NCBI GenBank assembly: GCA_947259645.1
Contig: CAMYND010000001.1
Span: 11,169 to 75,168, forward strand
Length of the DNA stretch: 64,000 bases
Source: Thermodesulfovibrionia bacterium
Lineage (GTDB): Bacteria; Nitrospirota; Thermodesulfovibrionia; UBA6902
Direction of reading: 5' to 3'
Shown: positions 32,413 to 63,890 of the stretch, piece by piece
Layout of the letters: every line of letters begins with the position of its first letter
How positions within the stretch are numbered: position 1 is the first letter of the stretch
Position numbers and translations under genes: made by a program
The notes under the pieces: generated by a model
Told to the model about the DNA's origin: nothing
The model's database searches: none
The model's input: the letters and a program-made list of their open reading frames with translations, nothing else

Positions 32413-32438
32413 CTGCCAGACAAACGGCGTTAAAAATG

Positions 32439-32460
32439 TGAAACATGCAGTTCTGTTTCA
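32439..32460. promoter_or_regulatory. Palindrome TGAAACA-N8-TGTTTCA (terminator-like hairpin or operator) between SBP gene and TAXI gene
   Basis: 7-bp perfect inverted repeat with 8-nt spacer 26 nt after stop of 31114-32412. Confidence 0.3.
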
Positions 32461-32591
32461 TACGTCAACTATAAAAAAAGAAAGGGGGGGTAAACGGTCA
32501 GATGAGCAGGAATGAATGGTTTATACGACAAGGGTTCCTGCACAACACGTATTGTTGAAAACACAATACTATTTAAAAAGGAGATGAAAAC

Positions 32592-33563
32592 ATGAAAAAC
32601 AAAGCATTTGCAGTAATTGCCGTATGCTGTGCCTTTCTCATGGTCGCGATTGCCTTTCCTGTTGACTCCCAGGCCAAACACAGGATCGTCTTTGGCGGCG
32701 GACCAGCAGGCGGGACATTCCAGGTAGTTGCAAACGCTGTACAGACCTATAAGCCGGTCAAAAATGTAGAAACATTCACCGTAAAGGCACAGTCATCTGC
32801 CGGATCTGTGGAAAACCTGAGAAAAGCAAACTCAGGCAAACACGATTTCTCCGTTGTCTATTCAGGACATGTATACCTGGGAAGAAACGGAATGATGAAA
32901 AATGATTCAAAGAAGTACGAAGATGTTATGGCAGTCGCTTACCTCTACGGAGCACCAGCGCAACTCGTCGTTAAAAAAGGATCAGGGATCAAGAGCGCCA
33001 AAGACCTTGTCGGCAAGAAAGTCGGCGTCGGCAATGCCGGTTCCGGTGCTTTTGCAAACTGTGAAATGTTCTTTACCCACCTCGGAGTCTGGGACAAAAT
33101 TGAAAGAAATGCCATGGGCTATAATGATGCGGCCCAGGCATTTGGGAACAACCAGCTGGACGCATTCTGGCTCTTCACGGCATTCCCGAGCGGTGCGGTC
33201 ATCATGGCGGCGCAGACCAATGACATTGCCCTTATCAACATCGGGAAAGATGCTGAAGAGAGCGGATATTTCAAGAAATATCCCTATTTCGGAAAACTCA
33301 CTGTTCCTGCCGGTACCTACAAAGGTGTTGACACTGATACGCCGTCATTCTTTGACTCCACTCTGTGGGTAGCGAATAAGAAAGTACCTGCTGATGTTGT
33401 GTACGAAATTCTATCGCTGATATACACCGATGAAGGTCTGGCTCACATGGTAAGCCAGAAAAAGACCTTTAAGGCAATGAGTGTCAAGGATGGCGTCAAA
33501 GGTATTGTCACCCCTCTTCATCCCGGCGCAATCAAGTTCTGGAAAGAAAAAGGAGTGATGTAA
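32592..33563 (+). CDS. TRAP transporter solute receptor, TAXI family
   Basis: 323 aa, signal peptide, GGGPAGGTFQVVANA...ENLRKANSGKHDF pattern typical of TAXI receptors. Confidence 0.7.
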   Translation: MKNKAFAVIAVCCAFLMVAIAFPVDSQAKHRIVFGGGPAGGTFQVVANAVQTYKPVKNVETFTVKAQSSAGSVENLRKANSGKHDFSVVYSGHVYLGRNGMMKNDSKKYEDVMAVAYLYGAPAQLVVKKGSGIKSAKDLVGKKVGVGNAGSGAFANCEMFFTHLGVWDKIERNAMGYNDAAQAFGNNQLDAFWLFTAFPSGAVIMAAQTNDIALINIGKDAEESGYFKKYPYFGKLTVPAGTYKGVDTDTPSFFDSTLWVANKKVPADVVYEILSLIYTDEGLAHMVSQKKTFKAMSVKDGVKGIVTPLHPGAIKFWKEKGVM

Positions 33564-33575
33564 CAATAACCGTAG

Positions 33576-33596
33576 GGGCGGGTTTCAAACCCGCCC
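33576..33596 (+). other. Intercistronic hairpin (GGGCGGG-uuucaaa-CCCGCCC) between TAXI receptor and permease genes
   Basis: 7-bp GC-rich stem 13 nt after stop of receptor gene; typical differential-expression attenuator position. Confidence 0.4.
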
Positions 33597-33616
33597 TTAT
33601 AGACTGAAGGGGAAAT

Positions 33617-35335
33617 ATGTACGATAAATTAAACAAAATCGAGAAATATATATTTGATGCCTGTTCCCTAATCCTTGTTCTTTTTTACTCCTATTCCGCT
33701 GTGCTGCAGCCGGCATCAACTCAGTATCACAGGGGAATCTATGTTGTCATAACCTATGTGCTTGTTTTTTTACTCTATCAATCAAAGTCCCGTATCATGA
33801 GGGCCGTAGACTATGTGCTGATGCTGCTTTCTATCGCGAGTATCGGATACTGGATATTAAATTTTGAAACTATAAACTATCGCACCGGTGCAGAAACACA
33901 GATTGACATGGCAATGGCCATGATCGGTGTCCTTATAGGCATTGAACTGGCCAGAAGAGTGGTTGGAACCGTTTTTGTAATAATGGGAACGGTGCTGCTG
34001 TTATATGGTGTCTATGGTGATTATATGCCTGAACTGATCTCTCATGCAGGTGACACATTCCCGGAATTATGCGTCAGCATATTCTATAAGAGCGACGGTA
34101 TATTCGGTATCATGGCCAATGTCCTGGCAACCTATGTGCTTCTTTTTGTTATATTCGGGGCTTTTCTTGAAAAGTGCGGCGCCGAGAAATTTTTCATCGA
34201 TTGGCCCCTGGCCGCAGTCGGTCATAAAACCGGAGGCCCGGGTAAGGTGGCCGTTATCGCAAGCGGCCTTTTCGGGTCCATATCAGGGAGCGCGATCGCA
34301 AACACAGTTTCCACTGGTGCCTTTACCATTCCAATGATGAAGAAGGCAGGTTTCAAACCACACGTAGCCGGAGCAATTGAACCGGCTGCGTCCATCGGCG
34401 GAATGTTTATGCCGCCGATTATGGGAGCCGGCGGATTTATCATGGCGGAACTGACGGGCTTACCTTATTCGAAAATAATGCTTGTTGCCATATTCCCCGC
34501 TATCATGTATTTCTACAGCGTCTACCTGATGGTTCATTTTTACGCTAAAAAGAATAATATTGTAGGTGAAAAATCAGAACACAGCGCCATGGAGATATTA
34601 AAAAAAGAATGGTTCTATGCACTGCCGCTTATTGTAATAACCATTTTTATGCTGACCGGATATTCTCCTGCTTATTCAGCAATTCTGGGCATTGTTGCCT
34701 GCCTGGTTATCAGCTGGTTCAGGAAAGAGACACGCATTGGTCCTAAAGAATTCCTGGAAGCGTCCAGGGCCGGCACAGAAAGCAGCCTCAAGATCGGAGC
34801 CGTAGTAGGGGTTATCGGCATTATCATTGGTGTGCTCACTTACAGCGGACTGATGCTTACTATTGCGGACATCATGATCGAGCTTGCAGCCGGGAGACTG
34901 TTCCTGACTATTATACTGATCGCTCTCGCTTCTCTCGTCCTCGGGATGGGGGTCCCTGTTACAGCCGCATACCTCATTACCGCTGTCGTCGCCGTACCGG
35001 CGCTAACCCATCTTGGCGTCAATGAAATTGCTGCTCACATGATCGTTTACTGGCTATCACAGGATTCTAATATTACCCCGCCTGTATGCATTGCTGCCTT
35101 TGCCGGCGCAACCATCGCAAAGGCCAATATGTGGAGGACCGCGTTCTCAGCCTTTAAATTTGCAAAATTCCTGTACCTGGGCGCGTTCCTGTTCGGATAT
35201 GTCCCGGGCTTTACTTTGAACGGCAGTACTTTGGACATTGTGAAGTCATTTATTCTCATCATAATCGGCACCTATGGCTACACCTGGCTTATGAGCGGCA
35301 TCTGGATGAAACACTTTAAAAAATCAGCAGCGTAA
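33617..35335 (+). CDS. TRAP transporter fused 4TM/12TM permease (TAXI-associated)
   Basis: 572-aa polytopic protein immediately downstream of TAXI receptor. Confidence 0.7.
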   Translation: MYDKLNKIEKYIFDACSLILVLFYSYSAVLQPASTQYHRGIYVVITYVLVFLLYQSKSRIMRAVDYVLMLLSIASIGYWILNFETINYRTGAETQIDMAMAMIGVLIGIELARRVVGTVFVIMGTVLLLYGVYGDYMPELISHAGDTFPELCVSIFYKSDGIFGIMANVLATYVLLFVIFGAFLEKCGAEKFFIDWPLAAVGHKTGGPGKVAVIASGLFGSISGSAIANTVSTGAFTIPMMKKAGFKPHVAGAIEPAASIGGMFMPPIMGAGGFIMAELTGLPYSKIMLVAIFPAIMYFYSVYLMVHFYAKKNNIVGEKSEHSAMEILKKEWFYALPLIVITIFMLTGYSPAYSAILGIVACLVISWFRKETRIGPKEFLEASRAGTESSLKIGAVVGVIGIIIGVLTYSGLMLTIADIMIELAAGRLFLTIILIALASLVLGMGVPVTAAYLITAVVAVPALTHLGVNEIAAHMIVYWLSQDSNITPPVCIAAFAGATIAKANMWRTAFSAFKFAKFLYLGAFLFGYVPGFTLNGSTLDIVKSFILIIIGTYGYTWLMSGIWMKHFKKSAA

Positions 35336-43795: not shown

Positions 43796-43974
43796 TTGAG
43801 CAGAGGCCGCAAACATTCCTGATATTCCCGCTGTACCGCTGTCCTGCCCTACCTCACAGGTAAGACTTTGAGAACATAGATTATCCCCTGTTTTGGACAT
43901 AACAGCCTTGATTTGTATAGTCCCTAAAAAAAGATTTAACTTTTCCTGAAAGAGAGCCGATATAATACGTACCT

Positions 43975-45861
43975 ATGAATATAGAGGACAAAAGAAGCTT
44001 TAAGCGCTACAGAACCAGAACTGACTGCGAAATCATGGTGAACGGAGAGGCCATAGCAGGAAAGGTCTTCGACTACTCCGATGGCGCGGGTGTTGTTGTT
44101 GAAAATGTACCCCATTTCAGCCGCGGAACCAAAGCTGGCCTGACAATACCTTTTCTTGGGATGATCTTTACAGGCGAAGTAGCATGGTCACGGGAAAGCG
44201 GAAAATATATCAGGGTCGGATTTAAAAATGTTGGTAATTTTGCTGGAAATCTGAGCCATCACAAGTTGGCTGATATCCTCATAGGCATCCAGAGGAGCGG
44301 CTGCACCGGGGTCCTTGGCATTACAAACGGATCTGCGGTAAAGAAAGTGTTTATAAAGAACGGGGATATCGTATTTGCTACGTCTAACAGAAAAGATGAG
44401 CGCCTTGGGGAAATCCTCGTAAAGAAGGGGCGAATCACCCTCACAGAATACTATAACGCCTCCACATTAATGGTTAAGTCCGGGCAGAAGATGGGAAAGG
44501 TTCTTGTAGAGCTCAACCTGCTCAAACCCAAAGAACTCTTTCAGGCACTGAATGAACAGATAGAAGAAATAATCATGAGTCTTTTTGATATTAATGAGGG
44601 GACCTTTGAGTTCAAAGAGGAACAACTTGCGGCAGAGGAACTCGTAACCCTTAAAATCAGCACTGCTAACATTATTTACCAGGGAATGAAGAGGATTGAT
44701 AACTTTATTTATATCAAGGAGATGTGCCCGCCTGATAACGCTATGTTAGGGCTCTCCCAGAACCCGCTCAATATTTTTCAGTCTCTCAGTCTTTCTCCTG
44801 CTGACAAAGATATTCTCTATGCTGTAAGCAGAAAAGCCACGTTGAAAAAAATACTGTCAATTTCCTCCCTCAAAGACTTTGAAACACTGAAAACAGTCAG
44901 CGCACTGCTCAGTATCAGGTTTATTAACATACTGAGAGAAGAGGGTGATTCCCTGGAGCTTTCACTTGATGAGATCCTTGGTGAAATAAGTGAAAGCACT
45001 CCGCAGGAATTCCTGGATAAAACAGAACAGATGTTCGCCCGGTGCGAAACACTGGGACATCATGAGATTCTCGGAGTGGATAAGGGCGCGCCTCCTGACG
45101 CGATCAAAAGAGCCTACTTCAGGCTATCGAAAGAATACCATCCTGACAGACATTTTTCTTACCCGGAGTATGATCTGAAAGGAAAGTTAGTCAGAATCTT
45201 TTCTTATTTGACTGAGGCATATGAGATACTCACTGAGCCAGAGCAAAAGGAAGAGAGTAAAGTGGCTGTTACTGATTCAGGGACAGAGACTTACGGAGCA
45301 TCAGCAGAAAAGACTCCTGTCACATCCGAAACAGAGAATGCCTGGCAAAAGAAGCCTATTACGCACAACGACAATTTTGACAGTGCACCACCGGGTAAAA
45401 CAGGTATTCAGGTCAGCGGGAAAAATGAGCACACAGAGTCATATGCGGAAGGCCTTGGAATCTCGGGATACCATGACGCAGTGGCTACTGACCTTGCATC
45501 ACCAGTCCCGGAACCAATAACCGAAGAAACACAAGATAGCCCATCCGCTACTCACGATCAGTCTCAAACACCGTCTAATGACATAAAAACAAGTACAAAA
45601 GAAAAAGCAGTACTTGCATCGGCAGGAGAAACAGTATACATCGGGCCGAAAAAAACGAACAAAAAACTGATATCAGCTATCGCCCTGATTCTTATCAGTA
45701 TTATTTCATTGGTAACTTTTTTCCACAGTCAGTCCCGAAAGGATACTGATTTATACCCCGGGCCGATGACTGTTCATACCTCTTCTGTTGAGATGTCGGA
45801 GAAATCTGATAACGTGCCTCAGTTCCGCGATGATGCCTTTGATAAGATACTGAAACGGTAA
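43975..45861 (+). CDS. Multidomain protein: N-terminal PilZ-like, DUF4388-like, J-domain (DnaJ), C-terminal TM segment
   Basis: KRYRTRTD + DYSDGAG (PilZ-like); HEILGVDKGAPPDAIKRAYFRLSKEYHPDR J-domain with HPD; hydrophobic LISAIALILISIISLV near C-term. Confidence 0.55.
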   Translation: MNIEDKRSFKRYRTRTDCEIMVNGEAIAGKVFDYSDGAGVVVENVPHFSRGTKAGLTIPFLGMIFTGEVAWSRESGKYIRVGFKNVGNFAGNLSHHKLADILIGIQRSGCTGVLGITNGSAVKKVFIKNGDIVFATSNRKDERLGEILVKKGRITLTEYYNASTLMVKSGQKMGKVLVELNLLKPKELFQALNEQIEEIIMSLFDINEGTFEFKEEQLAAEELVTLKISTANIIYQGMKRIDNFIYIKEMCPPDNAMLGLSQNPLNIFQSLSLSPADKDILYAVSRKATLKKILSISSLKDFETLKTVSALLSIRFINILREEGDSLELSLDEILGEISESTPQEFLDKTEQMFARCETLGHHEILGVDKGAPPDAIKRAYFRLSKEYHPDRHFSYPEYDLKGKLVRIFSYLTEAYEILTEPEQKEESKVAVTDSGTETYGASAEKTPVTSETENAWQKKPITHNDNFDSAPPGKTGIQVSGKNEHTESYAEGLGISGYHDAVATDLASPVPEPITEETQDSPSATHDQSQTPSNDIKTSTKEKAVLASAGETVYIGPKKTNKKLISAIALILISIISLVTFFHSQSRKDTDLYPGPMTVHTSSVEMSEKSDNVPQFRDDAFDKILKR

Positions 45862-48885: not shown

Positions 48886-51090
48886 ATGAGTAAAAAAGAG
48901 ATGATAATGAGACTTAAACAACTGGTGCGTAATTCAATCTACATTGCTGTTTTAGTCTTTCTGACAATGCTCAATACCCATGCTCAGGACAACACGGGCA
49001 AAGATGGCACTCTGCAGTATCTCATTTCCCTGCATGAAAAAAATCCTGCAGTTGTGGATTACATCATACCGGTAGCTAAGCATTATAAGAAAAGCGCGCG
49101 CTATGATAAAGCAGCTGCGTGGTTCATGAAAGCCGCAGATATTCAGCCTGACAATACAGACATACTTTTTGAAATAGGCATTCTGCTGTCATGGACAGAT
49201 AACTATCTGAGTGCAATAGAATATTTTGACAAAATTCTTACGATAGAGCCAAACCACGATGACGCAAAACTCGCCAAAGCCAGAGTTCTGAGCTGGCAGG
49301 ACAAACGCGCTGAAGCCTTGTCCTTAACTGAAGAGGTCATTGAACATAATCCCGGATATTTGGATGCATATGAACTGAAGGCCCGCATCCTTACGTGGGA
49401 AATGAATTATGATGAGGCCATTGAGATATATTCACAGATGCTCCAAATAAAACCGGACAGCAAAAATGCCCGCAAGGGGTTAGTAGATATTATTTCCTTT
49501 CAGGGTAACTATGGAGAGGCTGTCTCAAAGTATAGAAGCCTCCTCGCCCAGTACCCTGAAGACATTGACCTGATGAACACACTGGGAAAGGTTCTGCTCT
49601 GGCAGGGAGAATACGGAGAGGGCATCTCAATATTAGAGAAATCTTTCATATTAGATGAAAGACGAAAAGAGACCGTAGAACTGTTATCCCAGGGGTTTCT
49701 GTGGAGCAAAAGATTTTCGGAAGGTATTGAGTTTCAAAAAAGAATCATCGAAAAAAGCCAAGACGATTTTCAGGCCACCTATAATATCGCCGCTCTCTAT
49801 GAAGCTATGGGAAAATATGACCAGGCAATAGTCTGGTATGAAAAGGCCGCTGAATTAAAGAGAGATGACCCTCAGGTAAATGCGAAGCTGGGACTGCTCT
49901 ACAGCCGAACTAATAAAATTGATCAGGCGGTTACATCATTTCAGCGGTCTTTAAAAATCCGTGAAAATGATGTAGATAACCTGATAAACCTCGGGCGGGT
50001 CTACAGCTGGGAGAAAAGAATAAATGAATCAATAGGATTATACCAGAAGGCCCTTGTTCTTGACCCCCTCAACCAGGATGCACATATCGGTCTGGGCAGG
50101 ACCTATTATTATAATGGCCAATGGGACCTGGCAGAAGAACAGTTTCGTAAAGTACTGGAAATCAATCCGCTCAATAAGGAAGCATTTACAGAGATCGCGA
50201 GAATCAGATCTCTCATGAGGCCTTCACTCATTACCAGTTATCGATATTTCTCATTCCGGAATTATTCAAGCGATTCAGACGAATTAATAGGTAAATCATT
50301 TCGCCACGAAGTATTTGAGACCTTGAGTCATAATTTCTCTTCAGCATTATCAGGCGAGATTCAATACAGGCGTATACATGAAAAAAGCTATGAATCGGGA
50401 GAGAGGCTCTATTCGATGAAGGCCGATGAATATTCGGGATATTTAAGTGCCAGGCTCAATAAATATCTGCAGGTACGGGGCAAACTTATCGCGGGAACAT
50501 ATAAAGTCGAGAGTGATTTCTATACACTGAAAAACAGGGACTTGCTTTCAGGGTTTGTGATTCTCGATTACAGCAAGGACAAATGGGATATAAATGCCAA
50601 TTTTATAAGGGAACCGCTTTTTCCGGTCTACGAGGGTGATGAGTTATGGATTAAACATACAAACAGCTATGGGGGTTCTCTCCGGTATAATTACTCAGAG
50701 GACCTGAGTTTTTTCACTACCTTTAATTACAAAAAAGATTACGCCTCCTATAAGAGAAATGATTATTGGGCAGGCTTCGATTATGTCCTGCCAAGGTTTA
50801 AGAAACTCGAGTTTGAATATTTCTTCAGACATCTCACGAATCCACAGGACAACCTGCATTCAGCGAGTCTCATATATACGGATGCGTTCGAGAAGCTCAA
50901 TTACTTTTCCTCCTATAACCTTGAAAGCAGCTCCTTATTTAATGAAATTACGCAGACCATTAATTTATTTTTCTATTACGATTTAAAAGATAATATCAGT
51001 GCAAATGCAGGCCTGGCATATAGCCGAAACCTAAAATCAGACAAAGACGAAGCCCTTGAAATAAATGCGTATATATCATACAGATTTTAA
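48886..51090 (+). CDS. TPR-repeat protein with C-terminal outer-membrane beta-barrel (PgaA/BcsC/PrsT-like EPS export component)
   Basis: 734 aa; N-terminal TPR repeats; C-terminal ~300 aa with alternating aromatic pattern ending ...YISYRF (C-terminal Phe typical of OMP barrels). Confidence 0.6.
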   Translation: MSKKEMIMRLKQLVRNSIYIAVLVFLTMLNTHAQDNTGKDGTLQYLISLHEKNPAVVDYIIPVAKHYKKSARYDKAAAWFMKAADIQPDNTDILFEIGILLSWTDNYLSAIEYFDKILTIEPNHDDAKLAKARVLSWQDKRAEALSLTEEVIEHNPGYLDAYELKARILTWEMNYDEAIEIYSQMLQIKPDSKNARKGLVDIISFQGNYGEAVSKYRSLLAQYPEDIDLMNTLGKVLLWQGEYGEGISILEKSFILDERRKETVELLSQGFLWSKRFSEGIEFQKRIIEKSQDDFQATYNIAALYEAMGKYDQAIVWYEKAAELKRDDPQVNAKLGLLYSRTNKIDQAVTSFQRSLKIRENDVDNLINLGRVYSWEKRINESIGLYQKALVLDPLNQDAHIGLGRTYYYNGQWDLAEEQFRKVLEINPLNKEAFTEIARIRSLMRPSLITSYRYFSFRNYSSDSDELIGKSFRHEVFETLSHNFSSALSGEIQYRRIHEKSYESGERLYSMKADEYSGYLSARLNKYLQVRGKLIAGTYKVESDFYTLKNRDLLSGFVILDYSKDKWDINANFIREPLFPVYEGDELWIKHTNSYGGSLRYNYSEDLSFFTTFNYKKDYASYKRNDYWAGFDYVLPRFKKLEFEYFFRHLTNPQDNLHSASLIYTDAFEKLNYFSSYNLESSSLFNEITQTINLFFYYDLKDNISANAGLAYSRNLKSDKDEALEINAYISYRF

Positions 51091-51937
51091 ATTAGTCATT
51101 ACCATTCTTATCCTGTTATTTTTCTCACCATCTGATTATCTGTATGCGCAAAATACATTGTCCATGCAGCTTTATCATGAGGACACAGGAGGAGGGACTG
51201 ATATCTGGGCAGGAGGAGACAGTTTTATCCTTTCCAATGGAAGGCTGAAGAGTCAAAGCAGGATATTTCTGGAAGAATTTCCGAATACGCGAAAGGTAAT
51301 CCTGATCTGGTCTGGAGAGGTCAAAAATGATAACCCGCGTTTTCAGCAGATAGAGCTCATCCCTGCTCGTAAAAAAAATGTCTCAATAAAAGCGGATAGC
51401 TGTTACAGGGCTGATTCTACTGGTTTGCTCTACTCCTGTGTTGCTGATATTACTCCGCATTACAACGGGAAGGGAGACTACATTATACAAGGGCTTCAAA
51501 GTGACCACTTGACCAGGAATGATCAAAGCGATCCTTTTTCTGTAGCAGGATATGCCATATTGGTACTCTACGAAAACTCTGAGCAGGGGAATCGTACGGT
51601 TAGGGTCTATGCCGGATTAGATGTGCTCGGGCCCGGTGAAATGCATGATATTTCGATTCTGGATAACGGCTCAGATGCATCCCTGTCAAAGATGGTTCTT
51701 GTAGGCGGTCATGGCCGAAAGGGCAATGGAAGTGCAAATCTACTCAATGGAACAAGTATAAGTCAATCAGAAGACTGGAATGGATCTTCAGGGGATTACT
51801 GGGATGTGGATCTGTTTGAAAACATAGATGTTGACCGGAATAGAGCAGCAAAAAACGGTTTAATCCTTTCTATTGATACTGTCCTGCAATGGGTTTATCC
51901 AGTGGTTATTGCCGCTGTATTTGAGGAGAAAGACTAA
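51065..51937 (+). CDS. Secreted hypothetical protein
   Basis: Signal peptide (ITILILLFFSPSDYLYA), no known motif; EPS-locus context. Confidence 0.35.
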   Translation: MRIYHTDFKLVITILILLFFSPSDYLYAQNTLSMQLYHEDTGGGTDIWAGGDSFILSNGRLKSQSRIFLEEFPNTRKVILIWSGEVKNDNPRFQQIELIPARKKNVSIKADSCYRADSTGLLYSCVADITPHYNGKGDYIIQGLQSDHLTRNDQSDPFSVAGYAILVLYENSEQGNRTVRVYAGLDVLGPGEMHDISILDNGSDASLSKMVLVGGHGRKGNGSANLLNGTSISQSEDWNGSSGDYWDVDLFENIDVDRNRAAKNGLILSIDTVLQWVYPVVIAAVFEEKD

Positions 51938-51938
51938 G

Positions 51939-52298
51939 ATGAAAAAAATAATTTTCTGTACGTTCGTTAGTGGGTTGATAGTATTTGCAATAAATATTAG
52001 CGGATCTTTTTTGCTGAACTCGGAAAAAGACAGTTTCAACAGGACCAGCCTCTCTGATCAAATTGGCATCGTGTCTGTTCTTTCAGCAGGTACTGTATAC
52101 GCTGCAAGCGATAAATCCCAGGGTAAAGCATTGGGCCATTTAAAAGATAAAAACAAGAAGCCGAAAAAGCCAAAGAAACCAAAAAAAGATAAAGGCAAAG
52201 GCCCATCCCTGCCAGCCCTGCCAATGGTATCGTCTGTCATACTGGGACTCGGGGCAGTAGGTTGGGGCAGGTATTTTTTCAGAAAACAGAAGGAATAA
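51939..52298 (+). CDS. Small secreted protein with Lys/Pro-rich spacer and PEP-CTERM-like (variant LPALP-CTERM) sorting signal
   Basis: Signal peptide; KDKNKKPKKPKKPKKDKGKG; C-terminus PSLPALP-MVSSVILGLGAVGWG-RYFFRKQKE = motif + TM helix + basic cluster; directly upstream of exosortase. Confidence 0.5.
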   Translation: MKKIIFCTFVSGLIVFAINISGSFLLNSEKDSFNRTSLSDQIGIVSVLSAGTVYAASDKSQGKALGHLKDKNKKPKKPKKPKKDKGKGPSLPALPMVSSVILGLGAVGWGRYFFRKQKE

Positions 52299-52301
52299 GT
52301 A

Positions 52302-53150
52302 GTGAAGAGACAATACGCTATAGTTATGGGCATATATTGCCTTGTTTACTGGAGTATATTTCATAATACCCTCACCTGGATAGCGCATTCGTGGAGGCAC
52401 AACTCTTTTTATACCCATGGATTCATAATCTTCTTTCTCTGCCTTGGGCTGCTCCTGATAAACAGTGCGAAGCTGAAAACAACTAGTTTTCAGCCAGGCT
52501 CAGCACTGGTCCCTGGCATCGCATTTTTAATTATGGTCTCTTTCGGTGTACTGCTGCGTTTTCATTACTTAATCGGGCTTTCCTTTATCACTGGCGCAAT
52601 CAGTCTGAACAGACTGCTCGTGGCAGAGGAAAATAAGGAGTTTATGCAGCTTCCGTTCTGGTTGATGGTGATTGCCATCCCCCTGCCCTTCCTGAATGAG
52701 GTTGCGGGCTATATGAGTTATGCCGCTTCAAAGACCGTAGCTGTCATCATGGGGGCGCTATTTTCGTCAGTAGAAGTAGATGGGATATCACTGATTATCC
52801 CCGGTGGTGTTGCATTTGATATAGATACCAGTTGCAGCGGAGCTGGCTCAATCCTTGCTTTGATCACTATTGCCATATTGTGGCTTGCATCATTTAAGGA
52901 CAATCCGAAAATTACCTCTGTTTTAATCGTCCTTGCTTTGCCCGTTGGATTTTTCACAAATGTATTACGGATCGTTTTCGTATTTATGGTTGCCAATACA
53001 TGGGGAATGCAATATGCCATACAATTCTGGCATGACTTTGCGGGCTATATCTTCTACATTATTTCACTGGGAATTTTATTCATCAGCTGGATTGCCATAA
53101 AACGAATCAGCAAGGACAAAATCAGGTTGAGAAGGCTCATCATAGCATGA
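52302..53150 (+). CDS. Exosortase (Xrt family) transmembrane transpeptidase
   Basis: 282 aa, ~8 TM, conserved Cys in DIDTSCSGAGSI and Arg in FFTNVLRIVFVF; adjacent to CTERM-signal protein and EpsI-like gene. Confidence 0.6.
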   Translation: MKRQYAIVMGIYCLVYWSIFHNTLTWIAHSWRHNSFYTHGFIIFFLCLGLLLINSAKLKTTSFQPGSALVPGIAFLIMVSFGVLLRFHYLIGLSFITGAISLNRLLVAEENKEFMQLPFWLMVIAIPLPFLNEVAGYMSYAASKTVAVIMGALFSSVEVDGISLIIPGGVAFDIDTSCSGAGSILALITIAILWLASFKDNPKITSVLIVLALPVGFFTNVLRIVFVFMVANTWGMQYAIQFWHDFAGYIFYIISLGILFISWIAIKRISKDKIRLRRLIIA

Positions 53151-55087
53151 CAATCAAACAATACTCTTTATTAATTATAGTGATATTTATCGCCTGTACC
53201 GGTAATGCCCTTGCTTCCCGGATAAATACTTTTACGACAGATATCGCCTATTATTTTGCAACATCACATGAGGGCAAGATTAAGGCCTCCTCGGATTTTC
53301 TTGATAATGATCAGATCCTTCAAATCCCCTTTGAGCTTGGTAATTGGGACGGTTATGATCTGGAGCATGATGATGAGAATCTCTCTTTTTTCAGGGCCTA
53401 TGTTGATCAACGCGATGGAGCGAAGATATATTTCATTGCAGTACATGCGCTTACCGAGAGCAAGCTGCACACTCCTGAAGTCTGTTACCTCAACGATAAC
53501 TGGAAGATAAGCAAAAGAGGATATAATAAAATCGCATTAGCTGATAAGCATTTTGAAACACGTTATTTTATTGCCGAGAAAGATGAATGGAAACATTACC
53601 TGTCGTACTGGTTTATGTGGCGTGATTCACGGCGACTTATGAGTGACGGCGCTGTTATGTTTCGCATAGCGGTCAGTATGGACAACATCTCTGAAGAGAA
53701 AGCCAAAGCCAAGTTACGGGATTTCATAATAAACCTGAGCGGCTATTCCGCGGACCAGAAAAATACTCCGGGAAAGAAAACGATACAGGAGACGCCGTTA
53801 TCAGAGCCATTCATAAACAGGGACAGTGAATATTTTGATACACGGAAAGAGACATTACAGTGGCTCCAAAAACAGATTGTACCAAACGAGATCGTGAGAT
53901 CTCCGGCAAACGACAGAAGGAATCTTATCTTAAGTTATAAATTACCAAAAGATGCCGATGCCTATCGCTACATATTCAGCAAATCATCACTCTATGACAA
54001 TGCACTCGCTGTGATAGCATTTACTATTGAACATCAATTTGAAACCGCGAGTAAGATTATTGATGCTATAATGCGCATGGGCGGGGAAGATGGGGACCTC
54101 TTTTTTACATTCAACACTCATAATAGCTGGCCAAACAGTAAAGACCGCGAGGGCGCGATTATTAGGTCAGGAGCATCAGCCTGGGCAGGTTATTCGATCG
54201 TCTTCTATTTAAGAGCACTGCTGTTGAGTGATCCCGATGCTATTGAAAAGAGCTCTGAACTGCAGGGTTACCTCAAGTATGCTGAGTTGATAGCTGATAA
54301 TATGCTGCAGCGCAGTGTAAATGATACAAGAGACCCCAGATATGGGCTGATTACCGGTGGCAATGGATCTTATCGGCTCTTTTTAAATGACGAAGCAGAT
54401 GTAATTGAAGAGAGGTTTGTGCCGGGAGAGGTTCTCTGGACCAGCATGGAGCATAACATTGATATGTATTTCTACCTGAGAGATCTTGGAGATGTTTCCG
54501 GCAATCAGGATTATTCATTGGCTGCGGAGGCCATGGGGGAAAGTCTGCTTCAAAAAAGCTGGAACACGAGATTTGAGCAGTTTAACCGGGGACAGAGGCT
54601 GGATGGCCCTGATACTGTCAGGGCCCTGGATTGCGCCTCATGGGGGGTGTTTCTGCTTTTGGCAAGAGAAGAAGAAGAAAAAGCATATGCTGCATTATCA
54701 GCTGCAGAAAATTACAGAAGCATAACAGACAGGGGGTTCGGCTATAAACCCTATATTGATAAACCCATATATGAAAATCGCAAGATAAACACATTTTATT
54801 TTCCCTCTAATCCTCAAAAAAACTGGACTGATCTTGAGATGATGTGGACCGAAGGGGCCCTCGGGGTTTCTCTGGCCAATATGCGCTTCAGGAATAATAA
54901 AAGAGCGAAGGACATTATCAGGGAAGTCCTGAAATACCGTTCTAAAAAGGGAGGGATAGCTTATTCATCCATACCTATTGCTCATGAGTTTTCCACTGCT
55001 CCTTCAGTAGCGCCTGCAGCGTGGCTTATTATTAATTTGGGTGAATTAGAGCAGAATAAGATAGCACAGCTATTCTGGAATCAATAA
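53147..55087 (+). CDS. EpsI-like exosortase-associated domain (N-term ~210 aa) fused to large alpha/alpha-toroid-like (glycosidase-like?) domain
   Basis: N-term signal/TM, HTPEVCY motif resembling EpsI family; C-terminal 430 aa helical-repeat domain of unknown function. Confidence 0.45.
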   Translation: MTIKQYSLLIIVIFIACTGNALASRINTFTTDIAYYFATSHEGKIKASSDFLDNDQILQIPFELGNWDGYDLEHDDENLSFFRAYVDQRDGAKIYFIAVHALTESKLHTPEVCYLNDNWKISKRGYNKIALADKHFETRYFIAEKDEWKHYLSYWFMWRDSRRLMSDGAVMFRIAVSMDNISEEKAKAKLRDFIINLSGYSADQKNTPGKKTIQETPLSEPFINRDSEYFDTRKETLQWLQKQIVPNEIVRSPANDRRNLILSYKLPKDADAYRYIFSKSSLYDNALAVIAFTIEHQFETASKIIDAIMRMGGEDGDLFFTFNTHNSWPNSKDREGAIIRSGASAWAGYSIVFYLRALLLSDPDAIEKSSELQGYLKYAELIADNMLQRSVNDTRDPRYGLITGGNGSYRLFLNDEADVIEERFVPGEVLWTSMEHNIDMYFYLRDLGDVSGNQDYSLAAEAMGESLLQKSWNTRFEQFNRGQRLDGPDTVRALDCASWGVFLLLAREEEEKAYAALSAAENYRSITDRGFGYKPYIDKPIYENRKINTFYFPSNPQKNWTDLEMMWTEGALGVSLANMRFRNNKRAKDIIREVLKYRSKKGGIAYSSIPIAHEFSTAPSVAPAAWLIINLGELEQNKIAQLFWNQ

Positions 55088-58534: not shown

Positions 58535-59410
58535 ATGAAAACTACCATTGTATGCGGTGTGCTCGGAGCTGGAAAAACTACATTTATCAGGAATATTCTG
58601 AAGCAGGGTGCTGAGAAAACCGTTGTCCTTGTGAATGATTTCGGCAGTGCAGGCATTGATGGAGAGATCCTCTCTGCGGGCGGGATCGAGACGATTGAAC
58701 TGCCCAGTGGATGTGTCTGCTGCTCCCTGCGTTTTGACCTTATCACTACAGTCCAGAAGATCGTTGATCAGCATAACCCGGAGCACCTCTATATCGAACC
58801 CAGCGGCGTGGCTTCTCCTTCGGGTGTTATCGACGCACTGGATTCATTGAAGATACAGCCTGTTACCGTGATCGGTATCGTCGATGCCACCGAGTTTATC
58901 GATATATACGAGACAGACATGTACGGATGGTTTTTTAAGAGCCAGGTGACCCGGTCGGATATTGTCCTGGTCAATAAAATCGATCTTGTAGACAAGGGAA
59001 AAAAAGAGAAGACCCTTGCCCTGATCGAAGGGTTAAATAAAAATGCGGTGATTGCTCCTACGGTAAATGCCGAGCTGGACAGGAGCCTGCTGTTTCATGA
59101 AACATCCGAACGGAAAATAGAGCCTGGCCATGATCACGCGCTTCAGCTTGAAAGCATTACCATACTGATCAAGAGGCCCGTTGCCCTGGAGCTTTTTATG
59201 ACGCTGCTGAAAAAACTGGCTGCTAATGAATACGGACAGGTGATACGAGCCAAGGCACTTGCCCAAACCGATCAGGGGCCCTACCGCTTCGACCTGGCTT
59301 CCAGGCAGGTAACATCTGAGCCATTTGATAAAGAAATCAAAAACAGCCGCCTTGTCGTTATCGGTAAAGATCTTAAGGAAGATGAAATAAAGGCGGCAGC
59401 TCTAAACTAA
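58535..59410 (+). CDS. CobW/COG0523-family G3E GTPase (putative metallochaperone)
   Basis: GVLGAGKTT P-loop, CVCCS metal-binding motif, overall 291 aa. Confidence 0.75.
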   Translation: MKTTIVCGVLGAGKTTFIRNILKQGAEKTVVLVNDFGSAGIDGEILSAGGIETIELPSGCVCCSLRFDLITTVQKIVDQHNPEHLYIEPSGVASPSGVIDALDSLKIQPVTVIGIVDATEFIDIYETDMYGWFFKSQVTRSDIVLVNKIDLVDKGKKEKTLALIEGLNKNAVIAPTVNAELDRSLLFHETSERKIEPGHDHALQLESITILIKRPVALELFMTLLKKLAANEYGQVIRAKALAQTDQGPYRFDLASRQVTSEPFDKEIKNSRLVVIGKDLKEDEIKAAALN

Positions 59411-59443
59411 CCCCCATATCGAGATTCAACCTCGATATGGGGG
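59411..59443. terminator. Bidirectional hairpin between convergent CobW-like and ferritin genes
   Basis: CCCCCATATCGAG-attcaac-CTCGATATGGGGG perfect 13-bp stem. Confidence 0.5.
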
Positions 59444-59453
59444 TGTACGTATC

Positions 59454-59969
59454 TTATACGGTAATATCTGCCGGGGGCACGAAGCTCCTGGCTCCAAGCT
59501 CTTTATCTATCATGAAGAGCCCACCAGGATTGTTCTCATTGAGTTTCAGGCTTTGCAGCACTTCGTCCGCGGACTCTTCCTCTTCGACCTGTTCGTCAAC
59601 GAACCACGTGAGAAAGCTGCTTGTTGCATGGTCTTTCAGCTTCAGCGAGAGGTCCATCAGGTCATTGATCCGCCCGGTTACTACCTGCTCATGTTCCAGT
59701 GTTTCTTCAAAGACAGCCAGCGCAGACTTCCATTCTGAAGGCGGGGCCTTGATCGCTGAAAGAATTACCCTGCCACCACGGGCAGTTACAAAATCATAAA
59801 ACCTCTTCACATGCGTCTGCTCCTCCATTGCCTGGATCCTCATCCAGCTGGAAAACCCCTTCAGGTTTACTGAATCAAAATACGATGCCATAGAAAAATA
59901 AAGATACGATGAGTATAACTCCCAGTTAATCTGCTCATTTATGGCCTTTTCCATCTTCTTCTCTAACAT
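59454..59969 (-). CDS. Ferritin-like protein (non-heme ferritin family)
   Basis: 171 aa, EQINWELYSSYLYFSMASYF...E..H ferroxidase-type residues. Confidence 0.7.
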   Translation of the reverse strand: MLEKKMEKAINEQINWELYSSYLYFSMASYFDSVNLKGFSSWMRIQAMEEQTHVKRFYDFVTARGGRVILSAIKAPPSEWKSALAVFEETLEHEQVVTGRINDLMDLSLKLKDHATSSFLTWFVDEQVEEEESADEVLQSLKLNENNPGGLFMIDKELGARSFVPPADITV

Positions 59970-60117
59970 GATGATCCTCCTTCAGTTTGTATGATGCCAA
60001 TTATTATACATTATCTCTTTCTGCCATGCAGTACAGCATATTCTGCCTGATTTAATTATCCCATTTTTCCCCTCTGTGTCAATTATTTTTATATCTTTAT
60101 TAAATATTTGGTAAAAA

Positions 60118-61368
60118 ATGCCGATACAAATAAGGGTAAGGGCTGTGTCTTCTGACAATGGGATCATATACGTGAAAAACATAAATAATAAGCATAACTC
60201 TGAGAACAGGGAAGCACCAAGGATCTGGATAATTTCCCAGGGGCAGACAATAAATATCGATCCGAGCAGCATATGCGAAGAACCTGTTTCCGGGCCGGTT
60301 ACAGAATACAGGATATCAGAACTTGGCCGCTACATGCTGGACCCGAACCCCATTACACTTGAAGAGAAGGTGATGGGATGCAAGGTCAAGTACCAGCGAA
60401 AGCCTTCCGGCAGGGTGGGAAATTTTCTGAAAAAACTTGTGTCCGGGAAGAACTCCTCTTCTGATGATGACGGGACAGAGGTTGAAGAAATTATTACAAT
60501 GTCTAAAACCGGTTACCCTGATTTTAACGATGAGGCCCTGAACGCTCATATGAAAAAAATCAATGCCATGCTGAGGCCCTATGATCCTGTAAAGAAACAG
60601 CTCATGGCCCTGGACAAGGAACAAATAGCGGACATCTCCGCCGTATGCGAAGAAGTAGGGGGGAGCCGTTACCCGCTGAACCTCCAGGGAAGCATAGATG
60701 ACAAGATCAGTTTTATATCCAACTCACTGTCCCAGAAAGCAAAGGTTGTTTTTAACAAGGCCTACCTGCTCAACGGCCTTTTTGAGCTGAGGGGCTTCAG
60801 GTTCGACCTCTTTAACTCAGATAACTATTACCGCCTTATTAAGGTCACCCAAAGAAACAAACCACGATACTATGTTGTAGACGCAAACTTTAATTTTAAA
60901 TTCTGGCTCGATGATAACTCACTTGTTCATTACATGCAGATCCTTGAGCAGACGATCGCGACAGACCCAAAGCTGAGAGAGGCGCTTCTTCTCTGCATAA
61001 AGAACAACGCAAAACCGTTGAAGCTTTTTTTCTCAAAAAAACTTGACCAGCAGTATTCAGGGCTCTACCTTCCCTTGACATACCGTGAAGTATTCGGTTC
61101 TCTCGATGTCACCGAGGATGAAAAGGAGACCGTAACAAAAGCATTGAATGACTTTCAGAACATCGTGTTCTTTAATTACATACCATGGGTTGACAGGGGA
61201 GAGCAAAAACTCTTTACGAATATTTCAGTGATGCATGATTTAAGGGCCCTTGAACCGATCAAATCTCAGCTTCCCCATGTCTATTCTGAGATTCACAAAA
61301 AAGTCGTGGAGTCAGATGCCGGGAGGCTGTACCTGCTGGACTCTATCAGGGAACACCAGAGTGTATAA
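60118..61368 (+). CDS. Hypothetical protein (416 aa), translationally coupled to downstream LonB-like protease
   Basis: No recognisable motifs; stop overlaps GTG start of next gene (GTGTATAA). Confidence 0.4.
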   Translation: MPIQIRVRAVSSDNGIIYVKNINNKHNSENREAPRIWIISQGQTINIDPSSICEEPVSGPVTEYRISELGRYMLDPNPITLEEKVMGCKVKYQRKPSGRVGNFLKKLVSGKNSSSDDDGTEVEEIITMSKTGYPDFNDEALNAHMKKINAMLRPYDPVKKQLMALDKEQIADISAVCEEVGGSRYPLNLQGSIDDKISFISNSLSQKAKVVFNKAYLLNGLFELRGFRFDLFNSDNYYRLIKVTQRNKPRYYVVDANFNFKFWLDDNSLVHYMQILEQTIATDPKLREALLLCIKNNAKPLKLFFSKKLDQQYSGLYLPLTYREVFGSLDVTEDEKETVTKALNDFQNIVFFNYIPWVDRGEQKLFTNISVMHDLRALEPIKSQLPHVYSEIHKKVVESDAGRLYLLDSIREHQSV

Positions 61369-63622
61369 CGATTACAATGAAAATGACTACAAATGGATTA
61401 AGGAGTTACTGCTCTATCCCATGTCGCTCGAGCGGCATTTAAATTACCTCAGGGACACCTCGCAGATAAGAACACCAGATGATCCGATCGAAAAGGTAAT
61501 ATTTCAGGATAATGCCAAAAAGGCGATTCGAAAGATTGCCCACAGCAGGGGGCATATGCTTATGGTGGGCAAACCAGGGACAGGAAAGTCTCTCCTTGCC
61601 ACTATGTTTAAGCATGTCATAGACAAGTCACTGGGAGACTATATCCGGCCTGACAAAGCCATCACTGCCTATCCCGGGAAAGACGACAATCATGTCCGCT
61701 TTGCCTATGCTGACCCGCGGAAGCTGGACAAATGGATCGCGAATATAAAACTTGAAATTGAAGCGGCGAAAAACAGCGTTGAAGAGTTTTCCCTGAATGA
61801 ACAGATTCAATCGATAAGCAAAGCCAAGAGGGGCCTGCTTTGGGCCACAGCACTGATTGTCCCGGCAGGATTCTTTATCCCGGCGGTCTTTGCCCTTGCC
61901 GGCCTTACAGCAATCGGTGCTGTCTTTATGTTCATCCAGGAAAATAACAACCGGGTCCAGGAAAAAATCCAGCGGGAGTCGCAGTCAAGCAAGACCGTAT
62001 CAGTAAAGCCGATTCTGGATCTGGTGCCGGAACTTCTCTATGACCCGAGGAAAGATAAGGATCTCATGTTAAATGTTTCTGATCCCAATTCCAAAAACAT
62101 GAAAGGGGGGTTCAGGCACGATCCCTACCAGTCCGGAAGCCTCCAGACGCCAATACATCAGAGAGCCTATCTCGGCGCCCATGCCAAGGCCCCGATAATA
62201 TACATTGATGAATTGAAAACACTCATGAAGACGAGGTACATGCCCAGCCTTCTTGAGATAATGCAAAACAAAAAGTACCTTCTGGAAGGCGGTAAAAATA
62301 CGGGTAGCGGTGCAGCCGACAGATCGGAAAACCATCTGAAGGCCGACAATATAATCATTGCCTGCTGCAACCATGACACCCTGATTCACCTGCAGGAAGA
62401 AGGAGAAGGCGCTTTTCTCAGCCGGATCGAGGACAAAGGAGAGATTATCCAGATGGAAGCAGCAGTACCGGAAACAGCTGACAATATAAGGCAGGTCGCC
62501 CAATATATTAAACAGGAAATCAATAACCTTGAAGAAGACTTCAGTAATTCCTGGGGCGAAGTCCTGAAAAAAGAGGGGCATGCCGGCGTCCGGAGACGGA
62601 GCGAACAGATATACGGCAAAAAACTGCCGCCTGACTACAAACTGACTGTGAGAGAATTTTCCCGGAGCGCTGTCGCTGAAATCATTAAAGAACTCCGCTG
62701 CCGAAGTTCTGACGGCAAACTGAGCTGCATGTTAAGGCCGATTAACGGCATTATTAAAACAGCGGAGCTGGAAGCAATTGTGGACAACTCCCACCTCGTT
62801 GAACCGCAGCACATACGAAAGGCACTGTGTGAGCACTTAAGCCTTGAGGGCGCAATATCCAAAGATATAATTGAACACAAGAAAGACCTGAAAAAATATA
62901 TAACCTCAATGACAGACTCGATCGGATATGTAGTAGGGCTTGCAGTAATAAGCTCCAGCGGAAGCGGTCGTATGTTCGGTCAGCCCCTGCCGATTCATTG
63001 CCAGATCAATACCGGGGGGTCAGACATCATTACCGCTCCGGGGAAAATCGGTGATATTGCCAAGGGTGCAGCACAAAACGTACGGGCCTCCATAAAAAGG
63101 CTTCTCCGAAAAATCGAGGCCCCCTACGTTGGATATGAAATGCATATCGAGTATGTTCAGGCCCACGGGGGAGTCGAAGGAGACAGCGCGTCCGTTGCCA
63201 TGGATGTTGGTCTAATATCAGACTTTATCCAGCAGCCCGTAGCCCAGAAATACGGCATAACCGGCTCTCTTACCGGTGATATTATTCTCGCTGTCGGGGG
63301 TGTTACAGAAAAAGTACGGTCAATAATGGACACGGACCTGACAATGGAAGGCGCCTGCATCCCCTGGCAGAACAAATATGATATAGAGCCGCTCCTGGTC
63401 AACATGGAGTTTGAGTACATTCAGAAAGACGAAGTCCCGGGTATCAGAATTTACCGTTCAGATGACCGGCAGGACCCCTTTGACATCTATTTCTGCAAGA
63501 CGAAATACAATGCCTACAAGATTCTTATGGGACTGAGCAAGAAGGCGATAGAGGGAAAAATGGCAGAGCGGAGCAGAAAAGACCTAAAGTTCATTAAACA
63601 TATAAAGGACAAATACAAGTAG
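61354..63622 (+). CDS. Membrane-anchored LonB-type ATP-dependent protease (AAA+ with TM insertion + Lon S16 protease domain)
   Basis: Walker A MLMVGKPGTGKSLL; TM hairpin LLWATALIVPAGFFIPAVFALAGLTAIGAVFMF between Walker A and Walker B (IIYIDELK); C-terminal GDSASVAMDV...GGVTEKVRS Ser-Lys dyad region. Confidence 0.65.
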
Positions 63623-63683: not shown

Positions 63684-63890
63684 GAAATGACAAATATCAA
63701 AGTTTAAATGTCAAATGAATTTCAAACATCAAATTTCGAAACAGCAACTTTAACAGAGCAGGTAAACAAAATTTTTTTATAACAATACACAAAACACGAG
63801 TACTGGAATATCGTATTTATCATGTTTTGTTATTACGTCATTGGGGCTTGATTTGAAATTGAGGCTTTGATGTTTGTCATTCAGAAATCA
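63684..63890. repeat. ~200-bp AT-rich structured element with imperfect terminal inverted repeats (AATGACAAAtATCAAAG / rc AATGACAAAcATCAAAG) and nested ACAAAACA/TGTTTTGT pair
   Basis: 17-nt arms at 63686-63702 and 63865-63881 (16/17 match) plus flanking TCAAA/TTTGA iterations. Confidence 0.35.

Follow-up and report, generated by a model that had tools for sequence, protein, structure and literature searches.

The 64,000-nucleotide (nt) stretch of DNA considered here (the window) comes from a Thermodesulfovibrionia bacterium (GenBank assembly GCA_947259645.1, contig CAMYND010000001.1, positions 11,169 to 75,168 of the forward strand). Two overlapping plus-strand genes near its downstream end form a translationally coupled pair that is strictly co-conserved in other genomes. 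The first, ORF1, encodes a protein of an orphan family, referred to below as the partner, and the second encodes a LonB-type AAA+ protease, referred to as Lon. The features of the locus, with their coordinates in the window, are as follows.

60100..60128, + strand: promoter-like element TTAAAT-N14-GCCGATACA upstream of the partner gene, its -35/-10 geometry being sigma-32-like
60172..61368, + strand: partner gene (ORF1), encoding a soluble orphan-family protein of about 398 amino acids (aa), with GTG 60172 as the probable start
61361..61368, + strand: overlapping stop/start junction GTGTATAA, the site of translational coupling
61361..63622, + strand: LonB-type membrane-anchored AAA+ serine protease of 753 aa, assigned from profile matches, structure-sequence matches and motifs
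61568..61591, + strand: Walker A motif GKPGTGKS (Lon residues 70-77), invariant, archaeal LonB included
61832..61942, + strand: hydrophobic hairpin (Lon residues 158-194), a predicted membrane anchor within the AAA+ alpha/beta subdomain
62195..62212, + strand: Walker B motif IIYIDE (Lon residues 279-284), assigned from the motif and from alignment with archaeal LonB
62525..62650, + strand: family-specific insertion of about 40 residues (Lon residues ~389-430), a gap in the alignments with Thermococcus onnurineus LonB (TonLonB) and Natrinema LonB
63179..63193, + strand: GDSAS, with the catalytic Ser609 following an Asp, as in a B-type active site
63296..63313, + strand: GGVTEK, with the catalytic Lys651

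The listing of open reading frames (ORFs) in the window gives 60118..61368 (+), 416 aa, as the maximal ATG-initiated form of ORF1 and 61250..63622 as the maximal form of the second plus-strand ORF. The homologues of Lon are nearly all 753-763 aa long and share the start M-x-x-x-Y-N-E-N-D-Y at the same position. Therefore, the GTG at 61361-61363 in the Lon frame is the correct start, and it overlaps the ORF1 stop codon TAA (61366-61368) by 8 nt, as an initial annotation of this DNA had stated. Residues 1 to about 18-35 of ORF1 are not conserved, conservation running from about residue 36 to the C-terminus, and the homologues of ORF1 (385-399 aa; 398 aa in the closest) begin about 18-25 codons after ATG 60118. 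Because of these later starts, and because the promoter-like element overlaps ATG 60118, the partner is probably translated from GTG 60172. The 416-aa protein of the initial annotation is thus present as a maximal ATG-initiated ORF, and the probable product has 398 aa.

The overlapping junction is a property of the family. An AGGGA resembling a Shine-Dalgarno sequence lies 5' of the junction, inside the C-terminal codons of ORF1, and most homologues carry ATGTNTAA at the junction position. The conserved C-terminal tail of the partner, 'R-G/E-x-Q-N-V', encodes both the Shine-Dalgarno-like sequence and the ATG of lon. Overlaps of 8 nt (82 loci), 11 nt (35 loci) or 4 nt (4 loci) were found at 121 of 128 junctions (~95%). 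The partner gene and lon are translationally coupled, as had been proposed from the window sequence.

Co-conservation of the two genes was examined in three independent samples of loci, namely ORF1-seeded contigs from one genome per species, Lon-seeded metagenome contigs and a divergent clade. A LonB-type gene lies directly downstream of the partner gene in 47/47 testable loci of the first sample, the 48th locus being cut by a contig end, and the partner gene lies directly upstream of lon in 80/80 loci of the second. The gene order is also the same in all three loci of the divergent clade, where identity to the window copies is only 19-21% for the partner and 47-49% for Lon. The pair is thus strictly co-conserved, in agreement with the two-gene cassette that the initial annotation had described. 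Identities of the partner and of Lon to the window copies are correlated (r=0.88), with the partner diverging about two times faster. The divergent, GC-rich loci (L134, 16-3467; L135, 951-4351; L136, 5286-8710) have overlaps of 1-4 nt and another type of junction, without the 'R-G/E-x-Q-N-V' tail. A homology search seeded with this clade returned only two proteins, and the databases hold a handful of its members.

Carriers of the pair belong to Nitrospirota (Thermodesulfovibrionia) and Desulfobacterota, with one metagenome-assembled genome (MAG) each from Myxococcota and Gammaproteobacteria, and Lon is 60-85% identical across these phyla. Two loci depart from the general picture. In the Thermodesulfovibrionia MAG CAMYNN01, a partner gene occurs on each of contigs 78 and 80 (L008 and L030), which may be explained by a second copy of the gene, by differing strains or by an artefact of binning. 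In a Desulfobulbaceae MAG (L031), Lon is 78% identical to that of the window, as close as the Nitrospirota copies, and the partner only 44%; lon may have recombined or been transferred by itself, or the discordance may come from mis-binning.

Assignment of the second protein follows published criteria. A LonB protease consists of ATPase and protease domains only, with a membrane-anchoring insertion between Walker A and Walker B and an Asp before the catalytic Ser, and its catalytic Ser and Lys are exactly 42 residues apart (PMC9569914). The consensus around the Ser is [E/D]GDSA[S/T] (PMC2605481). In Lon of the window, Walker A starts at residue 70 of 753, and a Pfam scan detected no LON N-domain. 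The distance from K76 to D283 is 207 residues, which matches the LonB rule of an insertion of more than 100 residues between the Walker motifs. Within this interval, residues 158-194 form the sole stretch of the protein with a 19-residue Kyte-Doolittle mean above 1.6, and they align with a hydrophobic segment of Natrinema LonB. The sequence EGDSAS around Ser609 fits the consensus. Ser609 and Lys651 are separated by 41 residues, so that the rule of exactly 42 does not hold; the divergent clade has the same spacing, and this one-residue difference is a minor departure from LonB. All of the motifs quoted in the initial annotation (Walker A, the hairpin before Walker B, and the Ser and Lys segments) were found. 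By these criteria (PMC9569914; PMC3391209), the protein is a LonB-type Lon for which ATPase activity and membrane insertion are predicted.

Profile and sequence comparisons led to the same assignment. The NCBIfam LonB model TIGR00764 matches Lon with E=8.9e-74 and 249.2 bits, which is below its equivalog cut-off of 516.6, and the window protein is accordingly a relative and not an equivalog of the proteins described by that model. Pfam returned Lon_C (E=2e-12) and, slightly under its cut-off of 22.4 bits, the archaeal LonB_AAA-LID domain (21.4 bits). The best sequence match in the Protein Data Bank (PDB) is TonLonB (3K1J, E=1.6e-55), and the best full-length annotated matches in a plasmid collection are haloarchaeal lonB genes, with about 27% identity. 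Alignments with TonLonB and Natrinema LonB have Walker motifs A and B, the pore-loop segment, the LID and the GDS/K site in common with Lon. Residues N337, R355 and R459 are invariant against archaeal LonB and are assigned as sensor-1, arginine finger and sensor-2 by alignment position only. The archaeal LonB layout recognized in the initial annotation is thus borne out by the profile match, the structural relative, the hairpin between the Walker motifs and the GDS site. The view that this layout is unusual in bacteria also agrees with the literature, in which LonB is treated as essentially archaeal (PMC9569914; PMC3391209). The family-specific insertion at residues ~389-430 follows the AAA+ alpha/beta subdomain and precedes the LID, and W398, E405, G406, R411 and R413 within it are conserved in the family; from its position and conservation, it is a candidate docking site for the partner. 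An AlphaFold2 model of Lon was discarded for fold searching, with a predicted local distance difference test (pLDDT) of 46 and a predicted template modelling score (pTM) of 0.30, obtained from a shallow alignment in which all sequences were at least 69% identical.

The partner, in turn, belongs to no described family. ORF1 gave no match in Pfam, NCBIfam, PADLOC or PHROGs, which upholds the earlier statement that the upstream ORF has no recognizable domains, and among 387 homologues none is named and none has a Pfam domain. Pfam scans of 35 individual family members, and of the most divergent members, also returned nothing. A profile search of 1.84 billion (1.84e9) cluster representatives retrieved only 136 proteins, all of them members of the ~390-aa partner family or fragments thereof, with no domain fusions among them. 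The partner therefore matches no known housekeeping family, and the suggestion that the cassette is uncharacterized stands in its case. Its maximum hydropathy is 0.56 with no transmembrane segment, as expected of a soluble protein. In the AlphaFold2 model of the partner (pLDDT 74.8, pTM 0.66), the N-terminal part is small and beta-rich, the linker (~96-135) disordered and of low complexity, and the body large and of alpha/beta type. Foldseek searches of this model against the PDB and BFVD gave nothing below E=0.1, and the only hits from PDB sequence profiles were designed helical repeats, which resemble the charged linker in composition. Residues W37, S67, G87, D138, C293, P300, H373 and Y405 are kept in both clades. 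The conserved polar residues among them are few (S67, D138, C293, H373 and Y405, together with W37), and the Cys and His may form a functional site.

Upstream of the partner gene, a conserved and strand-specific promoter-like motif is described here for the first time. Its family consensus across phyla is TTnAAn-N14-(A/G)CCGATAT(A/T), the -35-like part being TTAAT in Nitrospirota and TTCAAG in Desulfobacterota. Exact CCGATAT occurs on the plus strand in 29 of 85 independent ORF1 upstream regions and once on the minus strand, as against a mean of 1.3 and a maximum of 4 in shuffled regions. In 1.4 Mb of loci, 39 of the 152 RCCGATATW sites lie upstream of an ORF1 homologue at a distance of no more than 300 nt, and 23 of the 24 matches to the full motif are at partner genes. 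The 24th is in the window itself, 5' of a gene with DUF4388 and DnaJ domains. The window thus holds two matches to the full pattern against 0.01 expected, a comparison to be read with the fact that the pattern was partly derived from these sites. The second site, TTAACT-N14-GCCGATATA at 43936-43964 (+), lies 10 nt upstream of the DUF4388 and DnaJ-domain gene (43975-45861). Such a very short leader implies either a near-leaderless mRNA or a downstream start. The motif shared with a DnaJ-domain gene suggests a small common regulon, perhaps of the heat-shock type.

The sigma-32 consensus is CTTGAAA and CCCCAT(nT) with a spacing of 11-16 nt (PMC545781). Candidate sites in delta-proteobacteria have been reported as 'CTTGAAA-[N14]-aCCgAT', and the variants 'aCCgAT' and 'CCCgAT' occur at clpX and clpP-clpX-lon in Desulfovibrio (PMC545781, Table 9). 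Since both the geometry and the 'aCCgAT'-like -10 part of the motif match these Desulfovibrio candidates, the operon is probably under an alternative-sigma promoter of the RpoH (sigma-32-like) type, associated with stress regulation. In several Desulfobacterota loci, an internal copy of the motif, GTTGAAT-N14-AACCGATATT, is located about 220 nt upstream of lon in the 3' part of the partner gene (L075, ~3753-3788; L086, ~2222-2257; also L088, L112 and L130). These internal copies, with a near-canonical -35 part, fit the sigma-32 consensus much better, and an internal promoter at this place could raise Lon independently of the partner. CIRCE and sigma-54 motifs were also sought 5' of ORF1 and were absent or inconsistent.

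Nothing in the neighbourhood is conserved beyond the pair itself. Four annotated contexts were available, two from complete MAG chromosomes, one from a long metagenome contig and one from the 20-kb contig of the closest relative, and all are housekeeping or metabolic, with genes for IleRS, LspA, TsaD, PGI, Rho, PolA, tricarboxylic acid cycle enzymes, transporters and two-component systems. Genes in the window encode PGK, a TRAP transporter, an exosortase/TPR cluster, a CBS-PAS hybrid kinase, a CobW GTPase and ferritin. No defence genes adjoin the pair in these four contexts or in the window. Searches with PADLOC-DB v2 gave no matches to ORF1 and, for Lon, only P-loop-level similarity (IetA, E=0.002) and BrxL at E=0.016 and 11.5 bits, which is non-significant. 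In addition, a PHROGs scan of ORF1 gave nothing, and tblastn found ORF1 in none of 72,556 plasmids and 50,697 phage genomes. The operon thus has a chromosomal, non-mobile and non-defence context.

The initial annotation had considered the pair to be an inserted module and had recommended a check of GC content and codon usage. This check gave no foreign signature, the GC content, GC content at third codon positions and codon usage of both genes being within about 1.2 standard deviations of the other 40 genes in the window. The downstream AT-rich inverted repeat that had been taken as one border of the module does exist (63686-63719 and 63848-63881, with 34-nt arms that are 82% complementary). 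Its folding is, however, not more stable than that of shuffled sequence (z=-0.48); the window has no other copy of it, and Rfam gave no match to it. Inner repeats at 63779-63833 are nested in it, in a region of 34% GC that is cut by the window end. With native composition, a single-copy repeat of no unusual stability and no copies of ORF1 in the plasmids and phages searched, a recent insertion was rejected. No terminator-like site flanks the pair. The terminator hairpin assigned to its other border is a perfect 14-bp GC-rich hairpin at 59410-59443 (ACCCCCATATCGAG...CTCGATATGGGGGT), one gene away, where the genes for the CobW-like GTPase and ferritin converge; it probably terminates transcription in both directions and lacks a T-run.

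Some further observations concern the surroundings of the pair. A strong minus-strand sigma-70-like promoter (60055-60082, TTGACA-16-TG-GATAAT, 11/12) is found in the divergent intergenic region of 148 nt and presumably drives the ferritin gene (59454-59969). In three of the four contexts, a small gene with a PilZ domain lies no more than a few kb from the pair (L049, 13909-14205; L050, 18217-18537; L052, 6139-6456), which may be a coincidence in PilZ-rich genomes. A TRAP-transporter set (Peripla_BP_6, NMT1_3 and DctM) that lies directly upstream of the pair in L051 (4361-8602) is also present in the window (31114-35335), there at an upstream distance of about 25 kb. Such synteny among Nitrospirota, loose and over a long range, agrees with vertical inheritance. 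Positions 48886-55087 of the window hold genes for an exosortase (EpsH), large TPR proteins and DUF3485, a cluster of the PEP-CTERM/exosortase type upstream of the CBS-PAS hybrid histidine kinase gene.

Taken together, the gene pair with its coupling and strict co-conservation, the LonB-type features of the second protein, the motif upstream and the non-mobile, non-defence context lead to an interpretation whose chances we consider about even, namely that the operon encodes a stress-regulated, two-component, membrane-anchored, ATP-dependent protease, carried on the chromosome and inherited vertically. The downstream gene supplies a bacterial LonB-type enzyme, with an intact AAA+ ATPase that carries a predicted transmembrane hairpin and an S16 Ser-Lys protease domain, both catalytic parts of which would face the cytoplasm. 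Through translational coupling, the soluble partner of ~398 aa would be made in a fixed ratio with the protease. It may form a physical complex with Lon and act as a dedicated accessory subunit, whether adaptor, gate or regulator, and could thereby supply the substrate selection that the N-terminal domain provides in LonA and that is missing from LonB. The RpoH/sigma-32-like promoter would place the operon in the stress and protein-quality-control response. Lon proteases have been described as single-chain machines. A more specific form of the interpretation, which we advance tentatively, is that the ~390-aa partner is an obligate subunit of novel fold in the first two-component Lon machine, possibly sensing stress through its Cys and His residues and gating or targeting Lon.

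Several points weigh against this interpretation. Binding of the partner to Lon is something that we infer, and archaeal LonB works without such a protein. The partner has no recognizable adaptor fold or any other known fold, and the conservation of C293 and H373 across both clades could equally mean an enzyme or a metal or redox site. As for the regulation, the motif upstream of the partner gene fits the sigma-32 consensus only partly (about 4 of 6-7 positions in the -35 part and 5 of 7 in the -10 part), and the loci examined contained no canonical chaperone gene with which a regulon could be compared. Finally, all of the carriers are uncultured MAGs.

Strict pairing (47/47 and 80/80) and a partner that evolves twice as fast as the protease would also be found if the partner were a dedicated substrate or pro-protein of Lon, kept low or processed in a switch of the toxin/antitoxin or anti-sigma style and released under stress. 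The disordered linker at ~96-135 would then be a possible degradation initiation site, and the internal promoter of some lineages would raise Lon apart from the partner. However, no toxin, sigma or anti-sigma domain was found in the partner, and the genes occur as single copies in housekeeping surroundings and were not found in the plasmids and phages searched. Stoichiometric coupling with the partner gene placed first is also more typical of the subunits of a complex, and a substrate role seems unlikely to us.

Another explanation starts from C293, H373, D138 and S67, which belong to the small number of polar residues that even the clade with 20% identity retains. According to it, the partner is an enzyme or a redox or metal sensor that uses Cys293 and His373, with or without Asp138, and is merely co-expressed with LonB, for example in membrane or oxidative-stress repair in anaerobes. 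In a variant, the partner may sense stress and switch the protease on. Genes for ferritin and rubrerythrin do flank the pair in the window and in the closest relative, but this neighbourhood is not kept in the loci of other genomes that were examined. Since the partner, in addition, resembles no enzyme family or fold, we regard this explanation as improbable.

A role in anti-phage defence or conflict, with a BrxL-like Lon and a sensor or effector, as the initial annotation had suggested, is very hard to credit: the self-contained two-gene module with its variable surroundings, the patchy spread across phyla and a HepT/MNT toxin-antitoxin pair next to one divergent-clade locus would suit it, but neither PADLOC nor PHROGs gave a real match, ORF1 has no copies in the plasmids or phages searched, the neighbours are housekeeping or metabolic, the composition is native, the promoter appears to be of the heat-shock type and Lon, at 60-85% identity across phyla, is unlike fast-evolving defence genes.

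The stress-regulated two-component protease thus remains the preferred interpretation. The locus belongs to a tightly conserved bacterial LonB clade that is always accompanied by a coupled orphan partner, apparently behind a heat-shock-type promoter, and it gives no evidence for a new defence system. If the partner is indeed a subunit, the pair would show how a Lon protease without an N domain gains substrate selectivity. It would also constitute a new Lon subfamily, limited to anaerobic Nitrospirota, Desulfobacterota and relatives, and a new player in the membrane protein quality control of uncultured and environmentally important sulfate-reducing lineages. As a clean two-gene system, the pair is well suited to heterologous expression.

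No description of this bacterial LonB clade or of its partner was found in the searchable literature, where bacterial 'LonB-like' proteins are either LonC or LonBA. In the databases, the proteins of the pair go by 'Lon-like ATP-dependent protease', 'ATP-binding protein' and 'hypothetical protein'. LonC proteases, such as MtaLonC from Meiothermus taiwanensis and TTC1975 from Thermus, resemble Lon of the window in being bacterial, in having B-type residues at the Ser and in lacking a LonA-type N domain. They are, however, without a transmembrane region and ATPase-dead, with degenerate Walker and sensor motifs (PMC3391209), whereas the window protein has a transmembrane hairpin and intact AAA+ motifs, including Walker A and B; a LonC identity was rejected on these grounds. 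No LonC structure was among the PDB sequence matches of Lon at E<=1e-3. LonBA, the 'LonB' of Bacillus subtilis, is likewise a bacterial, short and presumably membrane-bound Lon (PMC9569914). Its anchor is N-terminal, with no inserted membrane-anchoring domain, and its active site is of the A-type with Pro-Ser, whereas the window Lon has an internal anchor and GDS. This identity was also rejected, the LonBA model TIGR02902 scoring 39 bits against a cut-off of 723. A LonA identity was rejected as well, as both the N domain and the Pro-Ser are missing from the window protein. BrxL of BREX systems has in common with Lon a Lon-type protease domain and a P-loop ATPase; the weak profile match given above and a neighbourhood without BREX genes set the two apart.

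The closest known system is archaeal LonB (MEROPS S16.005), which functionally replaces FtsH in archaea. Like TonLonB (3K1J) and the Haloferax and Natrinema enzymes, the window protein has no LonA-type N domain, intact Walker A and B with the anchor hairpin between them, a LonB-type LID, and a Ser-Lys dyad with an Asp before the Ser. The pore loop is kept as well (GGFRHDPYQSG against GDVRHDPFQSG). The window family differs in being bacterial and only ~26-29% identical to these enzymes, in the ~40-residue insertion before the LID and in extra segments flanking the hairpin and in the C-terminal part. Its Ser-Lys spacing is also shorter by one residue than in TonLonB and Natrinema LonB. A further difference is the obligate upstream partner gene of the window family, none being present upstream of the Natrinema lonB examined. 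For the partner itself, only functional analogies are available, in FtsH-HflKC, ClpXP-SspB, ClpAP-ClpS and the N domain of LonA, and clpS-clpA likewise form an operon. Although the partner resembles none of these in sequence or fold, in each of them a separate protein or domain selects or gates substrates, as the partner may do through a putative interaction with Lon.

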